Assembly (NCBI GenBank): GCA_019894975.1
Contig: JAGXNO010000001.1
Span: 25,278-89,277, forward strand
Source of the DNA: Promethearchaeota archaeon
Lineage (GTDB): Archaea > Asgardarchaeota > Lokiarchaeia > Sigyniarchaeales > SOKP01
DNA: 64,000 bases
Direction: 5' to 3'
The position numbers and the translations under genes are program-made. This document shows positions 7,776 through 53,100 of the stretch, in pieces; position 1 is the stretch's first letter, and the number at the start of each line of letters is the position of its first letter. The notes under the pieces are model-generated. The model saw only the letters and a list, made by a program, of their open reading frames with translations, was not told where the DNA came from and ran no database searches.

Positions 7776-8022
7776 TCATTTTTCAAATTATATATCAAAA
7801 ATAAATATGGCATAAAAAACTAATCAATATATCTGAAAATTAGCAAAAAAATAAATTCTTTAATTAATTTAATTAATAATAATCATCACAATAAGATGAT
7901 TTCAAGTTTAAAATCACAAATAAAATTAAAGCATAAAAATCAAAATTATTCAAGTTCTTATTTAATTCGTATAACAACAAATAAAATTTGAGTATATATT
8001 AAAAATTTAGTTTATTTATAGA

Positions 8023-9250
8023 ATGGATGTGATAAAGATTACAGATCAGAATGAGTTTACTACAAAATATATTATTGAAGTTAAATTTTCAATTAAAGGA
8101 GTTGTTGAAAAAAGCGATATAGTCGGCGCCATTTTCGGTCAAAGATAAAAGTCAATAGCCATATCGGCAAATCGGCTAAACTGAAGGTCTTCTTTTAGAT
8201 TTAGATTTAAGAGATCTACAAAAATCTGGACGAATTGGACGGATAGAAGTAGATAATATTTCTAAAGAGGGTGTCTCAGAAGGAAATATTAAAATTCCAT
8301 CCTCATTAACTAGAAAGGAGACCGCACTCTTGGCGGCGACAGTCGAAACAGTCTCTCGCGTTGGCCCGTGCGAGGCTGAAATTACCCTAATTGAAATTAG
8401 AGATGTTCGTGAAACCAAACGTAAGAAAATTATTGAAAGAGCTGCCCAACTTCTAAAGCAATGGGACCAAAAGTCTTTAGAACAAAGTGAAATTGAAGAG
8501 AAGATGGATAAAGATATTAAACTCGGAGAAATAATATCTTGGGGTCCTGATAAACTCCCTGCAGGTCCAGATGTGGAAAAAAATCCAGATCTCATTATCG
8601 TAGAAGGAAGAGCCGACGTTTTAAATTTATTACGAATAGGTATTAAAAATACAATTGCAGTTCAAGGAACTCAAGTACCTAAATCAGTAATAAGTTTAGG
8701 AAAAAAGAAGAAGACAGTAACATGTTTTCTTGATGGGGATCGAGGAGGTACTATTATTTTAAATGAATTATTGCAATTGTTAAAAATTGACTTTGTTGCT
8801 AGAGCTCCTGACGGGCATGAGGTTGAAGAGCTAACGAGAAAACAAATGATTAAAGCACTGCAAAACAAAAGATCCGCGAAAGATTTAAGAGATATGACGT
8901 CTGGATCTACGGAAGGAAAAAAATATAATACTAAGGAAGAAACACTTCAAAAGTACCTCAAGAAAGTAAAAATAAAAGATGAAGCAATAATTGTGGAAGC
9001 AATTAATACTATTGAAACAGGGCACAGTATTGGGTTTAACAAGAGCCTTAATAAGTTATTTGATTTTCCCGTTGGGGGTATTTTTGAAAAAATTAGAGAT
9101 TTTAAAGATACTCAATATTTAATTATCGATGGAGTTTTAACAAAAAGACTTTTATCACTGTCTATAAACATGAAAATCAAGTTTATTGCATGCAAAAATA
9201 AGGAAGATGAATTAACAATTCCAGAGCATTTAGTTGTCTTTTATTTTTAA
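8023..9250 (+). CDS. dnaG: Archaeal DnaG primase / exosome-associated TOPRIM protein, interrupted by a 37-nt insert (8143-8179)
   Basis: Exon 1 (8023-8142) reads [40 protein letters not shown] and then hits TAA at 8146. Exon 2 (8180-9250, frame +1) reads [24 protein letters not shown]...RVGPCEAEI...[11 protein letters not shown]...FLDGDRGG (TOPRIM). Joined, they give 396 aa carrying the conserved AIFGQTEGLL motif. Confidence 0.85.
8143..8179 (+). other. Candidate BHB-type intron within the dnaG mRNA
   Basis: The outer helix is 8131-8136 / 8183-8188. The central 4-bp helix is GGTC (8137-8140) / GGCT (8174-8177). The 3-nt bulges are AAA (8141-8143) and AAA (8178-8180). The inner helix is GAT/ATC. 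Symmetric cuts remove exactly 37 nt and restore the frame. Confidence 0.6.
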
Positions 9251-15356: not shown

Positions 15357-16493
15357 ATGGTTAATTATAGATATAAAGAATTTAAATCTGTTATAAACAA
15401 ATTGAAATATCCTGATTCTTGGTTTTGGTCTCGGTACACTTTAAATTCTTATTCGGGATGTGCTCACGCATGCATTTATTGTGATGCTCGGAGTGATCGA
15501 TATTATCTAGAAGATTTTGAAAATGAAGTTATAATTAAGCAAGATTTTGATAAAAAATTGGACTTAAGACTAAAACGAGCTCGAACACTGTTACCAGATG
15601 TCATTGCTGCAGGAGGAATCAACGATTCTTATCAACCGGTTGAAAAAGAGGTTGAACAAACAAGAAAAGTGCTACAAGTTATCGCAAAACATAAATTTCC
15701 CCTTAACATAGCAACAAAATCAAAACTCATTACTCGGGATATTGATATTCTCAATAATATTGCTGAAGACTCATGGTGTACAATCGGGTTTTCAATAAGT
15801 ACAATAAATGAAGAACTTGCGAATTTTTTAGAACCTTACTCTTCCCCTCCTTCTGAAAGATTTAACGCTTTAAAAATGATTAAAAAAGGAGCGTCGAATA
15901 TTCAAGTAGGTACATATTTTATGCCAATTATCCCGTTTCTAGCTGATGACGATTATAATATGGGAGATGTGATAAAACAATCAAAGAACGCTGGTGCTGA
16001 TTTTATTTTGTTTTCTCCCGGTTTAACATTGCGCGATTCTCAAGCTGCATATTTTATAAAAAAGCTAAGAAATAGTAAATATAAACAGACTGTTAAACCT
16101 TTACTCGAACTATATAAAGGTCAAATTTATCCTCCTGGTCATTATGTAAGAAACCTTCATTTAAAATTATTGAAGTTATGTGAAAAGTATAATCTGGCTG
16201 TTAGAGTAAAAAGGTGGATTCCTTCTGATTACCGCAAATGGAATTATAAGATCTCAGAACTTTTGCTAAATAAAGAATACATGAACTCCTTAAGAACAGG
16301 TAAATCAAATAAAAAGCTGATGTGGGCTGGCTTAAATTTAAATAATTTGGAAGAATCAATAGTAGATGTCTATAATAGAGGAGATTTGCATATGGTAAAA
16401 AACTTTAATTCCAAAATAATTGAATTTATAGCACCTTATTTAGAAAAAAGTAAGGAATTAAAACAAAAACAGGGGTTAGAAAAATTTCTCTGA
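15357..16493 (+). CDS. Radical SAM protein (SplB / DNA-repair-photolyase-like family)
   Basis: 378 aa with the CxxxCxxC motif CAHACIYC near the N-terminus. Confidence 0.65.
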   Translation: MVNYRYKEFKSVINKLKYPDSWFWSRYTLNSYSGCAHACIYCDARSDRYYLEDFENEVIIKQDFDKKLDLRLKRARTLLPDVIAAGGINDSYQPVEKEVEQTRKVLQVIAKHKFPLNIATKSKLITRDIDILNNIAEDSWCTIGFSISTINEELANFLEPYSSPPSERFNALKMIKKGASNIQVGTYFMPIIPFLADDDYNMGDVIKQSKNAGADFILFSPGLTLRDSQAAYFIKKLRNSKYKQTVKPLLELYKGQIYPPGHYVRNLHLKLLKLCEKYNLAVRVKRWIPSDYRKWNYKISELLLNKEYMNSLRTGKSNKKLMWAGLNLNNLEESIVDVYNRGDLHMVKNFNSKIIEFIAPYLEKSKELKQKQGLEKFL

Positions 16494-16525
16494 TAAATGT
16501 AATAACCCATGAAATTATCGAAGAA

Positions 16526-17230
16526 TTGAAAAACACTGCTCCTAAATTAACAACCGAACAGATTGATAGACGAAATAAAATATTAAATTCCAATAATCCA
16601 AACTTTTATGGATATGGTCATAAGCTATCTGATATAGAAAGAATTACTAGAACCATACATAAGAAGTATGAGTGTAGTTATGAGGATGCACTTTCTATTT
16701 GTAAAAGTTTTGTCAGTTCCAATATCCATGAAGAGAAGTTTTCCGGTATTTTTTTTCTCAATCACTTTAAAAGCAATTTTAATCAAACCACTATAAATTT
16801 TTTTGAGTTCCAATTATTGAATTACTGTGATACTTGGGCTTTTTGTGATAGCTTTTGCATCAGGATTATTGGACCATTTCTCGGGAAAAAGAATAACCAG
16901 CAATTAGCTGAAAAAACTATTGATAAATGGTCAAATTCTGAAAATCTTTGGGTTAGAAGAGCATCTCTGGTAATTCTTCTTAAAATTGTAATGATAAAAA
17001 GAGAATTCAATGAGGAATATGTATTTAAAATAATAGAAAAAATGCTTAAATACCCCGAAGATTATATTCAGAAAGGAGTTGGTTGGCTCTTTAAAACCTG
17101 TTCAAAATTTAATCCTGATTCAATTTTTCTTTACTTAATGAGTAATAAGAAAAGACTCCCTCACTTAATTCTAAGGTATGCTAGCGAAAAATTGCCTGAA
17201 GAAAAAAAAGTTAAGGTTTTAAAAAAATAA
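16526..17230 (+). CDS. DNA alkylation repair protein (AlkD-like HEAT-repeat family)
   Basis: 234 aa containing ..NLWVRRASLVILLK...YIQKGVGWLFK.., which are typical AlkD-like HEAT-repeat motifs. Confidence 0.65.
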   Translation: MKNTAPKLTTEQIDRRNKILNSNNPNFYGYGHKLSDIERITRTIHKKYECSYEDALSICKSFVSSNIHEEKFSGIFFLNHFKSNFNQTTINFFEFQLLNYCDTWAFCDSFCIRIIGPFLGKKNNQQLAEKTIDKWSNSENLWVRRASLVILLKIVMIKREFNEEYVFKIIEKMLKYPEDYIQKGVGWLFKTCSKFNPDSIFLYLMSNKKRLPHLILRYASEKLPEEKKVKVLKK

Positions 17231-19750: not shown

Positions 19751-19811
19751 TTTAAAAATTCAAATTTAAAATTTTTGGACTCTTTTTTTTAATCACCTCT
19801 AACTTGAGGAT

Positions 19812-20117
19812 GTGGCATCAAAATCTGAAAATCTCTGGGTTAGAAGGGCATCTATGGTAATTCTGCTTAAAATTGTAGTGATAAAGAAAGAATTCGATGA
19901 GGAATATGTATTTGAATTAGTAGAAAACATGCTTAACTACACCGAAGATTATATTCAGAAAGGAATTGGGTGGCTCCTAAAAACCTGTTCTAAATTTAAT
20001 CCTGATTCAATTTTTGGTTATTTGATGAACAATAAAGAAAGACTCCCTCGCTTAATCCTCAGATATAGTAGTGAAAAACTGTCAAATGAAAAAAGAAAAC
20101 AAATTTTGAAGAAATAA
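19812..20117 (+). pseudogene. Duplicated 3' fragment of the AlkD-like gene (C-terminal 100 codons only)
   Basis: Region 19811-20117 aligns by eye to 16924-17230 with scattered substitutions. The frame is preserved up to the same stop, but the N-terminal 130 codons or so are missing. Only a GTG start is available. Confidence 0.55.
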
Positions 20118-22874: not shown

Positions 22875-23420
22875 TTAGGTGTTTTTAGGATCAAATTTTA
22901 GATTCATGTTAGTTTCATCCAACTCAAAACTAATAATTAAGTTTGACACCAAATCACTTTCAATCTTGAAAGAGTGTTTCCCTTCAGTTAATATATTTAG
23001 AGATTCTGAATCAAGTTTAATCAAAACACTAATTATATCTCCGTAGGCAATAGTTCTTCCACTAAATTTACCCTTAAGGATATCCTCCACTTTAAATTCT
23101 ACTCCCTTGTGAAAAATTAAAAATCTGTCCTTAATTATTTCCAAGTTAACTGAATCTTTTGAAATATTAATTGGGGTATCATCTATGAATAACTTAGCAT
23201 ATTCAGAGAAATCGAAATTATTTAAATCAAAACTCTTTAGACTAAAATTCCCAATTTCTAAGTTCTCAGGAATTACGAATGGTATTAATAAATTTTTTAC
23301 TTTTATTTGGATTGAATCCCCTTTTCCATCTCCAGTAGTATCTACAGTTAATACACTTTCTTTTGGGGGGAAGATCTTCTTTATTAATACTTTAAATGCA
23401 GATAAATCAAACGTTATATT
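22875..23420 (-). CDS. Hypothetical protein; the open frame is longer than the track ORF and its start is unresolved
   Basis: The track lists 22875-23144 with a TTG start. The same frame stays open up to 23420 (..FDLSAFKVLIKKIFPPKESVLTVDTTGDGKGDSIQIKV..). An ATG at 23424 is out of frame by one T in a TTT run. Confidence 0.4.
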   Translation of the reverse strand, partial: NITFDLSAFKVLIKKIFPPKESVLTVDTTGDGKGDSIQIKVKNLLIPFVIPENLEIGNFSLKSFDLNNFDFSEYAKLFIDDTPINISKDSVNLEIIKDRFLIFHKGVEFKVEDILKGKFSGRTIAYGDIISVLIKLDSESLNILTEGKHSFKIESDLVSNLIISFELDETNMNLKFDPKNT

Positions 23421-23506
23421 TCATCAACCTATTAATCTGTATTGATAGTTTCTATTAATTAAAAATTAAAAATTTTGCGAAAAAATCAATAAAATCTTGT
23501 TTAGGA

Positions 23507-35200: not shown

Positions 35201-35337
35201 GCCCACATAGTGTAGCCCGGTCCAGCATTTTTTTGCTGTATTCCAGCGAAAAGCTAAATCGGGACTGTCAAGCTCTCTCCACGAAGGCGGAGCACAGAGC
35301 TCCTGCGACGCGGGTTCAAATCCCGCTGTGGGCGCCA
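35201..35337 (+). tRNA. tRNA-Asp (GUC) with two introns (about 30 nt near position 25/26-26/27; 29 nt canonical at 37/38) and a genomically encoded CCA
   Basis: The acceptor stem is GCCCACA/TGTGGGC. The D arm is GTGT-AGCCCGGTCCA-GCAT. The anticodon stem is CGGGA (35260-64) / TCCTG (35301-05). The loop is CTGTCA|C. The T arm is GCGGG-TTCAAAT-CCCGC. The 3' end is G-CCA (35334-37). The canonical intron 35271-35299 sits in a textbook BHB. Confidence 0.85.
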
Positions 35338-45460: not shown

Positions 45461-45511
45461 AAAAAGAAATGAGTTAAAAATCCTAAATAAAATATAAGAT
45501 TATTAAATTCG

Positions 45512-48500
45512 ATGGAAATAGAGATTAAAGGAGCAAGAGAAAACAATTTAAAGAATATCGATGTTAAATTCAAAGACGGTTTAACTGTTGTTACTGGGAT
45601 TTCTGGATCTGGGAAATCATCTCTTGTTTTCGATACATTATATCATGAGTCAAATCGTCGATTAATAGAGTTATTCGGTTATAGTCGCAAATGGTCAAGT
45701 CAAAGATCTTCTTATAAATTAGCTCCAGCTAAAGTTGGGTCAATAACCGGATTGGGTCCAGCAGTTGCAGTTGGACAAAACCTACTAAATAGAAATCCAA
45801 ACTCTACTTTAGCTACAGCATCAGGATTACATCCTTTATTTAGGTTACTCTATGCAAGGTTTGGGGTAAGAACGTGTCATAAATGCGGTACCAATATAAC
45901 TGTCCTAACTCAGGATGAAATAATTAATTATCTTTTTAGTTTAGCTAGAGAAAAATCTGTTGTTATTTATTCTCAGCTCGTAAACAATTCTATTGGAAGC
46001 CACAAAACATTACTAAATTTTCTTTCAGAGCAATTTTCTACAGAAAATATATATATTGATGACAAAAAATGGGAAGGATTAGCTCTCAATCCAAGTAAAC
46101 CACATAAAATCTTAATAAAACTCGCTCAAATCGATAAATCAACTGCAGATGAAAATGTACAAGAAATTGTCCAAAGAAGTCAGATATTAGGTTCAAATAT
46201 ACTTCAAATAGAGGTTGGTAAAAAAATCGAGAAAATTACAAGAGTAAAATCTTGTGTAGAATGTGGTACATGGTTAAAAGATATTGAACCCAAGCACTTT
46301 TATATGTCTTGTCCGTTCTGTAAAAGAAAGGGATGCAAAGAATGTAATTTTACGGGGTTACATCCTTTAGCTTCGTCTGTATATTTTTCAGGTCAGATTA
46401 TCACCCAATTGTTAAAATATTCAGTAAAAGATGCACTAAAGCTTTTTAAAGACACTAGACTATCGATTCCTACAAATCGATTGATAACTGAAATAACAAA
46501 AAGGTTAGTCGCATTAAAAGATGTAGGCCTTGATTACTTAACACTGAACCGTTCATCTCCTACATTATCGCGAGGTGAATCACAACGAGTAAGAATCGCA
46601 CTCACTTTGATTAACCAATTAGAAGATGTTTTGCACGTACTTGATGAACCAACAATCGGTCAACATGTTACAGATATTACTAAGTTTTTACCAATTTTCC
46701 ACAAATTACCTGGACCCGTTATCTTTGTAGAGCATGATAGAATAGCAGCATCTGCGGCGAATAATGCAATTGATATAGGACCTGGCGCAGGAACGAGTGG
46801 GGGATCAATAATATTTAATGGTTCTCCTTCGGAATTATGGGAGTCAAATACACCTACAGGAGAATTCTTTAGTTTAAGAAAAAAAGTCATTGTACCAAAA
46901 TTAAGGCCAAAACCAAATCTCTTTTTAAAAATTGAAGCTGCTGATAAGCATAATCTTAAGGAAATAACTGTGGAAATCCCTTTAAATCGATTAACAGTTA
47001 TAACGGGTGTTTCAGGTTCAGGTAAGAGTACCTTAATCGAAGATGTCCTTCATGCTTCACTACATAAGAAAAAACCAATCGGTTGCGGAAAGATTAATGG
47101 ACCATCTTTAAAGTCAGTAATGGTTGATCAGAGCCCTATTGGAAAAAATCCCCGCTCAAATCCAGCTACCTATACAAAAATATCAGAAATTATAAGAAAA
47201 CTATTTTCAAAAGAAACAGGTCTTAGTGCTTCTCACTATTCATTCAATAGACCAGAAGGTGCTTGTCCTACTTGTAAGGGAATGGGTGCTCTGGAGATAA
47301 GGATGCGGTATATACCTTCATCTTGGATCTCTTGTCCAGACTGTAAACAAGCACGATTTAAGGAAAAAGTTCTAAAGAATAAAGTAGTTTTCGGTGATAA
47401 ATCATATTCTATTTCTGAATTCTATAATTTATCTGTATCTGAGATTGCTGATTTAATAGAAAATGAAAATCGTTTATCTTCTAACGATTTACAAAAGTTG
47501 AAAGAAATGTTAAAGACTCTTAAAGAGATCGGTTTAGGGTATTTATCCCTTGGACAACCAAGTCCATCTTTATCGGGAGGAGAGGCTCAACGTATTAAGT
47601 TATCAAAATACTTAGGAAAAACATCTCTAATAAATCAGATAATTATATTAGATGAACCAAGCACAGGTCTTCATCCTCAAGATTTGAAGGGATTACTAGT
47701 AATCTTAGATCGATTAGTTAGAGCAAGAGCGACAGTTATCATTGTAGAACATAATTTGGATGTCATTAAAGCAGCAGACTGGGTTATTGATCTTGGTCCT
47801 GGAGCTGGTGATGAGGGGGGTAATATAATTTACTCTGGTCCTATTGAAGGATTATTAAAATGTAAAGATTCAAAAACGGCCAAAGCTTTGAAACTCGATG
47901 AATTAATAACACCAAGTTCAAAAAGAGGGAAAAAAAAACTACTCGATAAAATCACAATCAAAAATGCCCACATTCACAATTTGAAGGGAATCGATGTTGA
48001 ATTCCCAAAAAACGCAATTAATGTAGTTACTGGTGTTTCTGGAAGTGGTAAGTCTAGTTTAGTGAGTGATGTAATCGAAGCTGAAGCCAAACGTCGCTTT
48101 TTTGAAACCTTATCCATGTATGAGCGCCAAGGGATTCGTGGGGGTCCTGAAGTACTGGTAGATGAAATATCTGGTTTAGGAGTTACTTCTCATGTTATAT
48201 CAACTAGAGCACTGCATTCACGTTTTTTCATGATAAGGAATACAATAGGAAAGGCTACAGAAATTTCCCTTCATATTGCAAATTTATTAGCGTATGTTGG
48301 AGAAATTAATTGTCCAAAATGTGGAGTTTTAATGATACATAAGACAAAGATGGTATGTGATAAATGTAATACCATCATTAAATTACCCAATCCTATTCAT
48401 TTTGATCCCGCATCATATCAAGCAGCATGTCGAAATTGCCATGGTATAGGAACTGTTAACGTCCCACAACCAGATAAGCTAATTATTAATCCGGAAAAAC

Positions 48501-50401
48501 CATTGTGTAAGGGTGCGATGCATTCCCCCGGATTTTTTCCTCAGGGATATTTATGTAAACCATACAATGGAGGATATTATGTTGTCCAAGCCCTTGCAAA
48601 ACGTTATGATTTTGATCCAGCTAGTACCCCTTGGAATGAAATGACTAAGGAGGCTCAAGACGCATTCCTATTCGGAAACGATGAACCATTGGAAATACAT
48701 TATGAGAATCGTAAAGGTGATAAACGTACCTATCAAAGTAAATTTAATGGATTTTATCATGGATGGGTAGATGAATGGGATATTGGTGGTACATACACAG
48801 ATATAAAACCATGTGAAAGTTGTAAAGGTGCTAAACTTCGACCAGAATATTTAGCTGTTACATTAAATGGTTATAATATGCATCAGTTAAGTGAACTTCC
48901 CCTAGTGGTTTTGCTAAAAGTTTTAAAAAGTATCTCCATAAAGCATGAAATTCCTGATATTGTTCATAGGAGTTATAAAACGGTCCTAGAGCGTTTGAAT
49001 TTCTTAATCAAGACAGGTCTAGGATATGTTCATTTGAATAGAATAGCAGCATCTCTTTCAGCTGGCGAAGCTCAGCGGATTAGATTAGCAGGAGTTTTAG
49101 GTAGTGGTCTTACATCTCTTACAATTGTTTTGGATGAACCCTCGAGAGGTTTACACCCTTCGGAACTTGAAGCTTTATTGGAAGCACTTGTGGAATTACG
49201 TGATATGGGGAACACCATCTTAATGGTAGAGCATGATATGCTTTTGATTAATTCAGCAGATTTTATTGTTGATATGGGACCAAAAGCTGGAATTGAGGGT
49301 GGTGAAATAGTTGCAACTGGTCCCCCGATTGAAATAAAAAAAAAGAACACTATCACCGCAAATTGGTTGGATGGGAGAAAAAAGTTCAAGTACAATGAAC
49401 AAAAAAGAACCCCAAAAAAATGGTTAAAGATATATGGTGTGAAAGAAAATAATCTTAAAGGTGAAACAATAGAGATACCTCATGGCCTTCTGGTAGGCTT
49501 ATGTGGAGTATCTGGTTCAGGCAAATCTACGCTATTGATAGATACTATTGGAAGGGCTTTAGCCCCAAAAAAACATACCACGTCAATGGCACACGAACCC
49601 ATAGAGCCAGGAAAACATGATAAAATCGAAGGTGAATTATCTCAAACAATCATCATTGACCAAACCAGAGCAAGCATAACAAGCCCAATGAACTATCTTG
49701 GTTTAAAAAAAAACTTTTTCAAAATCTTTGCTGAAAGTGAGGATGCAATATCATTAGGTTTAAGCGAAAAAGACCTTAAAAAGAGATGTACTGCATGCAA
49801 AGGATATGGGTTAAACAAGACAGATATGGGATTCTTACCAGATATTTACGACTTATGTGAAGTATGTAATGGAACTGGATATTCTATGGATGCTTGGAAA
49901 GTGAAAGTAAATGGTATATCACTTCCCGAATTAAATGAATTGACTATTGATGAGATTCATAGATTGTTTAAAGAAGAAGATTCTATTGAAAAAAAATTAA
50001 AGTTCGTTAAAGATGTTGGACTAGGATATTTAGTAATGAATCAACCTGCTTATACTCTTTCGGGTGGAGAAGTCCAGAGACTTAAAATTGCGAAAGAATT
50101 AAGTAAGAAGAGTACAAACAAAACTATGTACATTTTGGACGAACCTACAGTAGGACAGCATATGGAAGATGTTTCTCGTCTTATTAATGTTTTACAAAGG
50201 TTAGTTAAAAAAGGACATACAGTAGTCGTTATTGAACACCATCCACACCTTCTTGCTGCATGTGATTGGTTAATAGAACTCGGTCCTGGTGCAGGTGATG
50301 AGGGTGGAAGGTTAATCGCAGCTGGGACGCCTGTAATGATAGCTGAGGGGATAACACCTACAGCACCCTACATAAAAGAGGTTTTGGAGGAGATTGCATG
50401 A
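45512..50401 (+). CDS. Tandem (double-length) UvrA-like ABC ATPase with four nucleotide-binding domains
   Basis: 1629 aa. There are four Walker A motifs (GISGSGKSS, GVSGSGKST, GVSGSGKSS, GVSGSGKST). There are four signature motifs (LSRGESQR, LSGGEAQR, LSAGEAQR, LSGGEVQR). There are four Walker B motifs (LDEPTIGQH, LDEPSTGLH, LDEPSRGLH, LDEPTVGQH). Several CxxC Zn modules are present. The second UvrA unit starts near 47950. Confidence 0.8.
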   Translation: MEIEIKGARENNLKNIDVKFKDGLTVVTGISGSGKSSLVFDTLYHESNRRLIELFGYSRKWSSQRSSYKLAPAKVGSITGLGPAVAVGQNLLNRNPNSTLATASGLHPLFRLLYARFGVRTCHKCGTNITVLTQDEIINYLFSLAREKSVVIYSQLVNNSIGSHKTLLNFLSEQFSTENIYIDDKKWEGLALNPSKPHKILIKLAQIDKSTADENVQEIVQRSQILGSNILQIEVGKKIEKITRVKSCVECGTWLKDIEPKHFYMSCPFCKRKGCKECNFTGLHPLASSVYFSGQIITQLLKYSVKDALKLFKDTRLSIPTNRLITEITKRLVALKDVGLDYLTLNRSSPTLSRGESQRVRIALTLINQLEDVLHVLDEPTIGQHVTDITKFLPIFHKLPGPVIFVEHDRIAASAANNAIDIGPGAGTSGGSIIFNGSPSELWESNTPTGEFFSLRKKVIVPKLRPKPNLFLKIEAADKHNLKEITVEIPLNRLTVITGVSGSGKSTLIEDVLHASLHKKKPIGCGKINGPSLKSVMVDQSPIGKNPRSNPATYTKISEIIRKLFSKETGLSASHYSFNRPEGACPTCKGMGALEIRMRYIPSSWISCPDCKQARFKEKVLKNKVVFGDKSYSISEFYNLSVSEIADLIENENRLSSNDLQKLKEMLKTLKEIGLGYLSLGQPSPSLSGGEAQRIKLSKYLGKTSLINQIIILDEPSTGLHPQDLKGLLVILDRLVRARATVIIVEHNLDVIKAADWVIDLGPGAGDEGGNIIYSGPIEGLLKCKDSKTAKALKLDELITPSSKRGKKKLLDKITIKNAHIHNLKGIDVEFPKNAINVVTGVSGSGKSSLVSDVIEAEAKRRFFETLSMYERQGIRGGPEVLVDEISGLGVTSHVISTRALHSRFFMIRNTIGKATEISLHIANLLAYVGEINCPKCGVLMIHKTKMVCDKCNTIIKLPNPIHFDPASYQAACRNCHGIGTVNVPQPDKLIINPEKPLCKGAMHSPGFFPQGYLCKPYNGGYYVVQALAKRYDFDPASTPWNEMTKEAQDAFLFGNDEPLEIHYENRKGDKRTYQSKFNGFYHGWVDEWDIGGTYTDIKPCESCKGAKLRPEYLAVTLNGYNMHQLSELPLVVLLKVLKSISIKHEIPDIVHRSYKTVLERLNFLIKTGLGYVHLNRIAASLSAGEAQRIRLAGVLGSGLTSLTIVLDEPSRGLHPSELEALLEALVELRDMGNTILMVEHDMLLINSADFIVDMGPKAGIEGGEIVATGPPIEIKKKNTITANWLDGRKKFKYNEQKRTPKKWLKIYGVKENNLKGETIEIPHGLLVGLCGVSGSGKSTLLIDTIGRALAPKKHTTSMAHEPIEPGKHDKIEGELSQTIIIDQTRASITSPMNYLGLKKNFFKIFAESEDAISLGLSEKDLKKRCTACKGYGLNKTDMGFLPDIYDLCEVCNGTGYSMDAWKVKVNGISLPELNELTIDEIHRLFKEEDSIEKKLKFVKDVGLGYLVMNQPAYTLSGGEVQRLKIAKELSKKSTNKTMYILDEPTVGQHMEDVSRLINVLQRLVKKGHTVVVIEHHPHLLAACDWLIELGPGAGDEGGRLIAAGTPVMIAEGITPTAPYIKEVLEEIA

Positions 50402-52743: not shown

Positions 52744-53100
52744 TTAATTGTTATAGCTTTCACTAGGTTGGTAATCTGATTGAATTATATCTACACTTTC
52801 TAATTCTTGTAAATGATAATAAAGGCTAGGTTTTTTTAAATTTTTAAAATCCCCCTTACCACACATTCCTTTACATTGATTTTCATCGGAATCTAAATTT
52901 TCGTTCATATCTTTAAGAAAATTAAATATTTCATCAGAAGATTTAGGACCCTCTTTTAAATAATCAAGGATGACCCATCGAATATGACAATGTAATTCTT
53001 TTACATATTTTTCTATCTCATTAAGGGTAAGATTACTTTTCGATATAGCACTTTTACTTGCTTTTGGATTTGGATTTCTCTTTTTAGCTTTTGCATTACA
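52744..53100 (-). pseudogene. ArsR-like wHTH ORF with no in-frame start (possible frameshift or sequencing indel)
   Basis: The open frame reads KAKKRNPNPKASKSAISKSNLTLNEIEKYVKELHCHIRWVILDYLKEGPKSSDEIFNFLKDMNEN...LYYHLQELESVDIIQ... An ATG at 53096 is out of frame. One extra A in the A4 run would join it. Confidence 0.4.

Follow-up and report, generated by a model that had tools for sequence, protein, structure and literature searches.

How an archaeon obtains an intact DnaG protein from a gene whose coding frame is interrupted is the question raised by the archaeal dnaG locus (8023-9250, plus strand) in the 64-kb stretch of Lokiarchaeial DNA analysed here, which as a whole we call the window. 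DnaG is a component of the archaeal exosome and of the primase machinery. From the ATG at 8023 the first part of the gene (exon 1, 8023-8142) runs through 40 codons to ...GAIFGQ, after which its frame meets a TAA stop at 8146-8148. The second part (exon 2, 8180-9250) opens at 8180 in a different frame (TEGLLLDL...), immediately behind an in-frame TAA at 8177-8179, and holds 356 codons with the Toprim domain plus the stop codon at 9248-9250. An earlier reading of this DNA, hereafter the original prediction, had described the frame as broken at 8146 and resumed at 8180, and translation bore this out. When the 37 nucleotides (nt) between the two parts, AGAUAAAAGUCAAUAGCCAUAUCGGCAAAUCGGCUAA (8143-8179), are deleted, the sequence reads GGT CAA ACT GAA GGT and a DnaG of 396 amino acids (aa) is restored, with the GQTEG junction that had been expected from this deletion; the predicted spliced junction is UUCGGUCAA|ACUGAAGG. 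The rejoined protein matches the NCBIfam DnaG equivalog NF003108 with 416 bits (cut-off 300). Its best database matches are DnaG proteins of 394 aa with 78-86% identity, and the named ones belong to Promethearchaeota or Lokiarchaeota, with a few Thorarchaeota. Gene callers give two open reading frames (ORFs) at the locus, of 41 aa and 306 aa. The latter (8330-9250), also foreseen, has a TTG start, and this TTG at 8330 (codon 50) is the earliest in-frame start codon of exon 2.

We consider it very likely that 8143-8179 is a relaxed, HBh'-like bulge-helix-bulge (BHB) intron in the dnaG pre-mRNA, which would be cut by the tRNA-splicing endonuclease and rejoined by an RNA ligase. This reading builds on the interruption itself, its recurrence among relatives, selection on both exons and a conserved, covarying structure.

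Recurrence and predicted removal of the insert

We compared one genome per GTDB species, which gave 51 Lokiarchaeial dnaG loci, and scanned JGI metagenome contigs for the 3' junction of the insert. We refer to the site between GQ and TEG as position A and to a site seven codons (21 nt) upstream as position B. An alignment of orthologues had been suggested as a check, and it placed an insert at the same codon, exactly at GQ|TEG, in 24 of the 51 species loci. The other 27 relatives have an uninterrupted GQ|TEG, and two of these (L019 and L041) carry an insert at position B. No interruption other than at these two positions was found in any of the 51 loci. The scan of JGI contigs added 35 more, every one with the insert at GQ|TEG, so that 45 distinct position-A sequences are available in total; homologous variants of the insert occur on more than 60 contigs from many studies. 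The identical 37-mer is present on contigs of three independent assemblies (L001-L003), from independently assembled ENA, Logan and JGI samples, which carry the 306-aa ORF product of the window itself. The samples behind ERZ27271168, SRR14373431/2 and JGI Ga0114925 and Ga0209536 contain the intron in identical form. In two further loci with 93% and 89% protein identity (L004 and L005) dnaG is also split, and in one of these the insert differs by two substitutions.

A rough neighbour-joining tree was computed from the spliced proteins. In it the position-A intron occurs on the deepest branches and again, patchily, between insert-free clades of the crown, and L041 is the sister of position-A species. 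The intron is thus widespread in Lokiarchaeia and is probably ancestral and repeatedly lost. The tree is most simply read as showing an intron that was present in the ancestor, was lost precisely several times and now and then changed its site. Several of the metagenome-assembled genomes among L006-L056 are titled Thorarchaeota, Hodarchaeota, Hermodarchaeota or Odinarchaeota. With the Lokiarchaeial DnaG of the window their DnaG proteins share 74-83% identity, and in the DnaG tree they nest among 'Promethearchaeota' records; these phylum labels look unreliable.

The inserts at position A are 29, 34, 36, 37, 38, 39, 40, 42 or 43 nt long and so fall into all classes modulo 3. An in-frame stop follows within 1-5 codons of the exon-1 junction in all 45 inserts, and 44 of them end with TAA in the frame of exon 2. 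Both exons are under selection in insert-bearing species: exon 1 has a pN of 0.058 against a pS of 0.63, and exon 2 a dN/dS of about 0.1. An invariant segment beginning with TEGLL starts at the very first base of exon 2, and no in-frame start codon precedes it. The lengths and stops, the selection on both exons and the lack of an upstream start together exclude a pseudogene, any read-through or frameshifting, and a split gene whose C-terminal part is initiated separately. These features of the sequence indicate that the insert is removed and not read through.

Pairing around the proposed splice sites and the candidate splicing machinery

The bases around the two proposed splice sites can pair in a fixed arrangement. 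The central helix H is formed by GGUC in exon 1 (8137-8140), which comprises the Gly39 codon and the C of Gln40, and GGCU in the intron (8174-8177). It is followed on the 5' side by a bulge AAA (8141-8143), with a predicted cut after 8142, and on the 3' side by a bulge AAA (8178-8180) and an unpaired CU (8181-8182), with a predicted cut after 8179. The inner helix h' consists of GAU/AUC (8144-8146/8171-8173) and is 95.6% paired. Within the intron a hairpin is formed by GCC (8158-8160), the loop AUAUC (8161-8165) and GGC (8166-8168), which is 94.8% paired, and a displaced outer helix AUUUUC/GAAGGU (8131-8136/8183-8188), 91% paired, joins exon to exon. The unpaired CU and the ambiguity that the AAA bulges create for the cut register were both part of the original prediction and proved correct: with the flanking A's, deletion of 8141-8177, 8142-8178 or 8144-8180 gives the identical product.

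For the single sequence, the match of 4 plus 3 base pairs in a fixed register has a chance probability of about 0.0015-0.006 at this base composition; the G+C content of the window is approximately 30%. Over the 45 distinct sequences, 94.9% of the cells of the whole structure are paired; shifting the 3' partners by 1-3 columns lowers this to 21-52%, and no shuffle reached the observed pairing or covariation score. All four pairs of the central helix form in 45 of 45 sequences, and in all 45 each splice site lies 2 nt 3' of its strand of H. This geometry agrees with the cuts 8142|8143 and 8179|8180 that had been derived from the rule of cleavage after the second bulge nucleotide. The pair 8139-8175 is C-G in 33 sequences, U-G in 9, G-U in 2 and A-U in 1; the G-U and A-U forms belong to divergent 29-nt introns, in which a G-to-U change in the partner accompanies a GGG or GGA codon for Gly. 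The inner helix shows one compensatory swap from U-A to A-U (L081) and a G-U variant (L061), and its length varies between 2 and 6 bp, with 6 bp in L046 and L047. The closing pair of the intron hairpin occurs as AU (12), UA (5) and GU (4). RNAalifold, which was not given the model, also recovers the central helix. The fit to a BHB motif is not beyond chance on the single sequence, but it is on the 45 homologous inserts.

The motif also leaves an imprint on synonymous sites of dnaG. The wobble base of Gly39 is a pyrimidine in 25 of 26 insert-bearing genes and in 5 of 27 genes without insert (Fisher 4e-9, not corrected for phylogeny), and the sole insert-bearing exception, with a wobble G, faces a compensating U. 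This base is constrained in insert-bearing genes only. At the unpaired wobble position of Thr41 all four bases occur. Phe38 is encoded by TTC in 17/26 insert-bearing genes versus 1/27 without insert, and Gly43 by GGT in 24/26 versus 14/27. These two skews fit the displaced outer helix, as weaker evidence than that for H.

As we infer cleavage, ligation and the fate of the intron, the end of exon 1 (GGUC) would pair in the transcript with the penultimate bases of the intron (GGCU), and this pairing would put the splice sites in symmetrical places, at a distance of 2 nt on the 3' side of either strand of the 4-bp helix, with the short inner helix closing the three-base 5' bulge. The tRNA-splicing endonuclease EndA recognises just such a 4-bp helix with scissile bonds 2 nt 3' of each strand, and for this reason EndA is the candidate enzyme. 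The broad-specificity (alpha-beta)2 type of Asgard archaea would cut after 8142 and after 8179. An RtcB-type ligase would then join the exons to ...GGU CAA|ACU GAA GGU..., which brings back the GAIFGQ|TEGLL motif and the 396-aa DnaG. The excised 37-mer would probably be circularised, like other BHB introns. Cleavage between bulge residues 2 and 3 is the rule stated for cbf5 (PMC2738675); applied to dnaG it would give a functional RNA, GGU CAA|ACU GAA. Asgard archaea are reported to have an (alpha-beta)2 EndA with an L1 loop that confers tolerance of relaxed motifs (PMC5829648), and their tRNA genes are reported to be rich in non-canonical introns (PMC11291895).

The window itself contains a spliced tRNA gene, tRNA-Asp(GUC) (35201-35334, plus strand; 134 nt), which is found by Rfam (RF00005, 33.9 bits) and missed by ARAGORN. 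As had been predicted, it holds a textbook intron: Rfam and a BHB scan define a canonical hBHBh' intron of 29 nt (35271-35299, position 37/38) with H CUGU/ACAG, bulges CAA/AGC and inner and outer helices of 5 bp each, cut after bulge nucleotide 2 by the same rule as proposed for dnaG. The presence of this gene implies that the host has the machinery. The same tRNA gene has approximately 30 extra nucleotides (about 35227-35258) between the D arm and the anticodon stem, with a GCUG-UAUUC-CAGC hairpin and the end ...GCUAAAU, which are probably a second, non-canonical intron. The hairpin loop and 3' end of this stretch loosely resemble those of the dnaG intron.

Several results weigh against an EndA-spliced intron in dnaG. 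Firstly, the motif does not have the strict hBHBh' form, since an outer helix abutting the 3' bulge is found in no sequence; the outer helix fits only if shifted by 2 nt, which makes the 3' bulge effectively 5 nt. The canonical BHB topology claimed in the original prediction thus holds for H, the bulges and the inner helix, which are kept in 45 of 45 sequences with compensatory changes, and not for the strict form. Since the dnaG motif combines the central helix with a single bulge of the canonical 3 nt and an inner helix of 2 bp or more, and has two extra unpaired nucleotides and no abutting helix, it is to be classified as relaxed HBh' and not as canonical BHB. Secondly, covariation is modest, as most paired positions are invariant, and the exon positions are also under coding constraint. 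Thirdly, the fold is thermodynamically weak: the RNAalifold consensus energy is only -2.4 kcal/mol, and the folding of 8120-8200 that had been proposed as a check gave a different minimum-free-energy structure, in which 8120-8126 pairs with 8172-8178 (z = -1.96). An alternative register of H, UCGG/UCGG (8135-8138/8172-8175) with cuts after 8140 and 8177, is 98% paired in most sequences. Furthermore, neither EndA nor RtcB is encoded in the window (Pfam, 58 stop-free segments). Lastly, an exact look-up of 28 predicted spliced DnaG proteins in a collection of 15 billion proteins found none of them, and the spliced junction of the clade of the window had 0 matches in JGI contigs.

Folding of a single sequence is uninformative in this case, because BHB motifs are not thermodynamic optima. 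The missing spliced products are weak negative evidence and weigh little, since the protein collection and the JGI contigs derive mostly from DNA assemblies. The presence of EndA and RtcB in the host genome is assumed from the literature on Asgard archaea. Two full-length proteins that are closest to an intron-bearing species (P0001 and P0006) were considered as possible spliced products and turned out to be ordinary intron-less genes like that of L006.

The alternative that survives best, though it is improbable, is that the RNA is excised by other means, either by a different nuclease and ligase pair or in the register with cuts after 8140 and 8177. The deviation from the strict motif, the weak fold and the availability of the alternative helix in most sequences would all fit it. 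No other archaeal system is known to us that excises RNA inserts of about 30-40 nt, and Rfam shows no ribozyme or other family here. The alternative register is retained only as a minor possibility: it shows no covariation, and its helix is disrupted in the three introns of 29 nt, exactly where the register with cuts after 8142 and 8179 is compensated. The latter register also has an inner helix. Finally, the L1-loop (alpha-beta)2 endonucleases are known to accept relaxed motifs (PMC5829648, PMC2738675).

Very improbable is translational bypassing, in which the ribosome would leave the message at Gln40 and land 37 nt downstream, with no RNA processing. The stop within 1-5 codons of the take-off site in 45 of 45 sequences and the hairpin in the gap are superficially like gene 60 of phage T4, which also has a short untranslated gap in its coding sequence and a stop just past the first part. 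Bypassing in gene 60 requires matching take-off and landing codons and involves no RNA cleavage, whereas in dnaG the take-off codon is CAA or CAG and the codon before ACN is UAA in 44 of 45 sequences and UAU in one, which gives no match. At position B the take-off codon AUA would likewise face AAA or AAU. The conserved pairing, moreover, links exon 1 to the 3' end of the insert and places the two sites with two-fold symmetry, which is a need of an endonuclease and not of bypassing. We know of no description of bypassing in archaea.

A genuinely split gene, whose products would be an N-terminal peptide of 41 aa and a C-terminal protein with its own start, perhaps in association with each other, has little to recommend it either. 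Two ORFs can be called and the TTG at 8330 could start a Toprim-containing product of 306 aa, but residues 41-90, which contain the invariant segment at the start of exon 2, have no in-frame start upstream and are nevertheless under purifying selection. In addition, the break lies inside one invariant motif, and the insert-free relatives have the exact fused sequence. It is most unlikely, too, that dnaG is a pseudogene or a gene inactivated by a small insertion, which would always retain the 37 nt and yield no full-length DnaG. The call of two short ORFs and the lack of the spliced product in protein collections would be expected of such a gene, but the insert is kept at one codon across DnaG proteins that have diverged to 62-70% identity and show no other lesions, whereas a dead gene would gain further frameshifts and stops. 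Purifying selection on both exons is strong, each in its own frame, and the insert has conserved ends and a pairing with compensatory changes. An assembly or sequencing artefact, for which only the a priori possibility in a metagenome-assembled genome speaks, is ruled out for practical purposes because the same 37-mer recurs in the independent ENA, Logan and JGI assemblies and homologous variants occur in the contigs mentioned above.

A second insertion site and other loci of the window

The two loci with an insert at position B bear on the origin of the dnaG intron. Both inserts lie between Ile33 and Val34 (EKSDI|VGAIFGQ); the one in L019 is 30 nt long (160-200 of L019, JBHLQA010000297.1) and the one in L041 is 31 nt long (about 1582-1612, CAZOYD010000026.1). 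They contain stops, and neither species has an insert at GQ|TEG. With the proposed cuts GAUAU|A...UAA|N, a 4-bp central helix forms in both (AGAU/GUUU in L019 and AGAU/AUCU in L041), the splice geometry is that of position A, and the 5' bulge is AUA (3 nt). A long hairpin serves as inner helix, and its loop (AGUUC/AUUUC) is similar to ANWUC, the loop of the hairpin at position A. In a search with a covariance model made only from introns at position A, the intron of L019 reaches 19.7 bits (E = 1.7e-4 for the two loci and E = 0.011 for 443 kb), and the copy in L041 did not rise above background. Taken together, the sequences suggest that positions A and B hold homologous introns.

The dnaG intron is conserved beyond what the cleavage motif needs, with an AGAUAA 5' end, a GCC-ANWUC-GGC hairpin and a duplicated UCGGC(U/A). 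The duplication appears in the window (8161-8177) and in the homologous columns of the alignment as a tandem near-repeat, AUCGGC(A/U) AA AUCGGCU; its first copy supplies the 3' strand for the internal hairpin and its second the one for the central helix. A third similar copy, UUCGGYC, stands in exon 1; since it resembles both intron copies, exon 1 could pair with either one, and the duplicated element could thereby stand in for the true 3' end. The duplication might reflect an alternative conformer or be a trace of the origin of the intron by duplication.

Related introns elsewhere were looked for with an intron-only covariance model, which matched just dnaG in the window (next best 12 bits) and only dnaG introns in 443 kb of related loci. 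The 37-mer is unique within the window at up to 3 mismatches. A repeated mobile element of the kind of a miniature inverted-repeat transposable element was rejected, as no second copy exists within the 64 kb of genome searched. A self-splicing group I or II intron or a known RNA family was also rejected: Rfam has no match at 8000-8300 with E values up to 1, and the insert measures 37 nt. A more speculative proposal, which draws on the extra conservation and on the second site and which we think rather unlikely, is that the dnaG intron is more than passive, in that BHB introns can relocate within a coding gene or that splicing or the circular RNA regulates DnaG production. Relocation, if true, would point to intron mobility or reverse splicing in those prokaryotes that are most closely related to eukaryotes.

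The window also has a set of neighbouring genes that is typical of archaeal information processing (FtsY, SecE, prefoldin, eIF6, L31e, S19e, RNase P Rpr2 and Nep1). No split domains were found in other genes of the window (Pfam, 58 stop-free segments). On the minus strand, a stop-free segment of 181 codons (22878-23420) has no Pfam match, and ATG, GTG or TTG does not occur in it before codon 92. The ATG at 23424 is well placed, but its frame is off by 1 nt and ends at a stop 5 codons on. This may be due to a frameshift, to an unusual start or to one more small interruption. A second segment on this strand, of 118 codons (52747-53100), resembles winged-helix regulators (...HCHIRWVILDYLKEGPKSSDEIFNFL...), and none of its first 63 codons is a start codon. 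Its 5' part is overlapped by an ORF of 27 codons in a different frame, which begins with an ATG at about 53096, and a frameshift or interruption is possible in this segment as well. On the plus strand, the match of a 104-aa ORF (19803-20114) to the Pfam DNA_alkylation repair family is confined to the last 85 positions of the family (129-213 of 213). A complete copy of this family lies 2.6 kb upstream (16454-17227, plus strand), and the shorter ORF is probably a gene fragment. Finally, a UvrA-like ORF of 1636 aa (45491-50398, plus strand) has an ABC_tran domain, a UvrA DNA-binding domain and further P-loop matches. The ORF that follows it has weak matches to squalene-hopene-cyclase repeats, and this neighbourhood is unusual.

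Relation to known introns

The closest known counterpart of the proposed dnaG intron is the cbf5 pre-mRNA intron of Crenarchaeota (Watanabe 2002, Yoshinari 2006, Yokobori 2009, PMC2738675), which is likewise a short BHB-type intron in the coding sequence of a conserved housekeeping gene. Both hit the most conserved motif, the cbf5 intron in the codon of the catalytic Asp and the dnaG intron at GQ|TEG. The motif is mostly of the relaxed ('unconventional') kind in both genes, with cuts between bulge residues 2 and 3, and the hosts have a hetero-oligomeric endonuclease of broad specificity (taken from the literature for the dnaG host). Cleavage of these 'unconventional BHB' introns by the hetero-oligomeric endonuclease has been described for cbf5, together with gain and loss among species (PMC2738675), and the dnaG intron shares the patchy distribution that implies loss or gain. 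The two differ in gene and phylum (Crenarchaeota versus Lokiarchaeia of the Asgard archaea). Unlike cbf5, dnaG has a strongly conserved intron sequence with an internal GCC-N5-GGC hairpin and, in two species, a second, possibly homologous, insertion site 21 nt away. Splicing of cbf5 was demonstrated by cDNA and in vitro cleavage, whereas splicing of dnaG is predicted from sequence. Membership of the cbf5 intron family was rejected because the host gene is dnaG (NF003108): the class of mechanism is common to both and the intron is a different one.

The relaxed HBh' and hBH introns in tRNAs of TACK and Asgard archaea (Marck & Grosjean 2003; PMC5829648; PMC11291895) would share their enzyme with dnaG. 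They have the same 4-bp helix with cuts 2 nt 3' of each strand, and a size range similar to that of the dnaG inserts (29-43 nt). The dnaG intron differs in having mRNA exons, with no tRNA body to aid recognition, and in that the exon part of its motif also encodes Gly-Gln/Thr-Glu-Gly, with the constraint on synonymous sites. Another mRNA substrate of the archaeal splicing endonuclease is the BHB intron in the 5' untranslated region of HVO_1309 in Haloferax volcanii (PMC7714728). In contrast to dnaG, this intron lies in an untranslated leader and its removal is not needed to restore a protein; the host is a euryarchaeon with an alpha'2 enzyme. In eukaryotes, HAC1 and XBP1 have a short intron in the coding sequence that is excised by a stem-loop-recognising endonuclease and joined by a tRNA ligase (RtcB in metazoa). 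As in dnaG, removal of this intron shifts the reading frame, but the endonuclease is Ire1 and splicing is regulated by stress, and the likeness does not imply homology.

Endonuclease-type introns in archaeal mRNAs are extremely rare. Besides its own case in a 5' untranslated region, the Haloferax study of 2020 names crenarchaeal cbf5 as the sole reported BHB intron in an mRNA (PMC7714728). The original prediction had also called such introns in coding sequences very rare, with cbf5 as the classic case, and knew of none in dnaG. A search of full-text literature, in which subscription journals are incompletely covered, returned nothing on a dnaG intron or on mRNA introns of Asgard archaea. As a practical consequence of the insert, gene callers split dnaG in about half of the Lokiarchaeial species genomes (24/51). 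Asgard archaea are the lineage closest to eukaryotes. If confirmed, the dnaG intron would rank, as far as the literature found, as the second BHB-type intron of a coding sequence and as the first such intron from Asgard archaea. Approximately 45 natural variants, repeated precise losses and a second site make dnaG of Lokiarchaeia a ready-made system for the gain, movement and loss of such introns, and for the study of how coding sequence and splicing motif evolve together.

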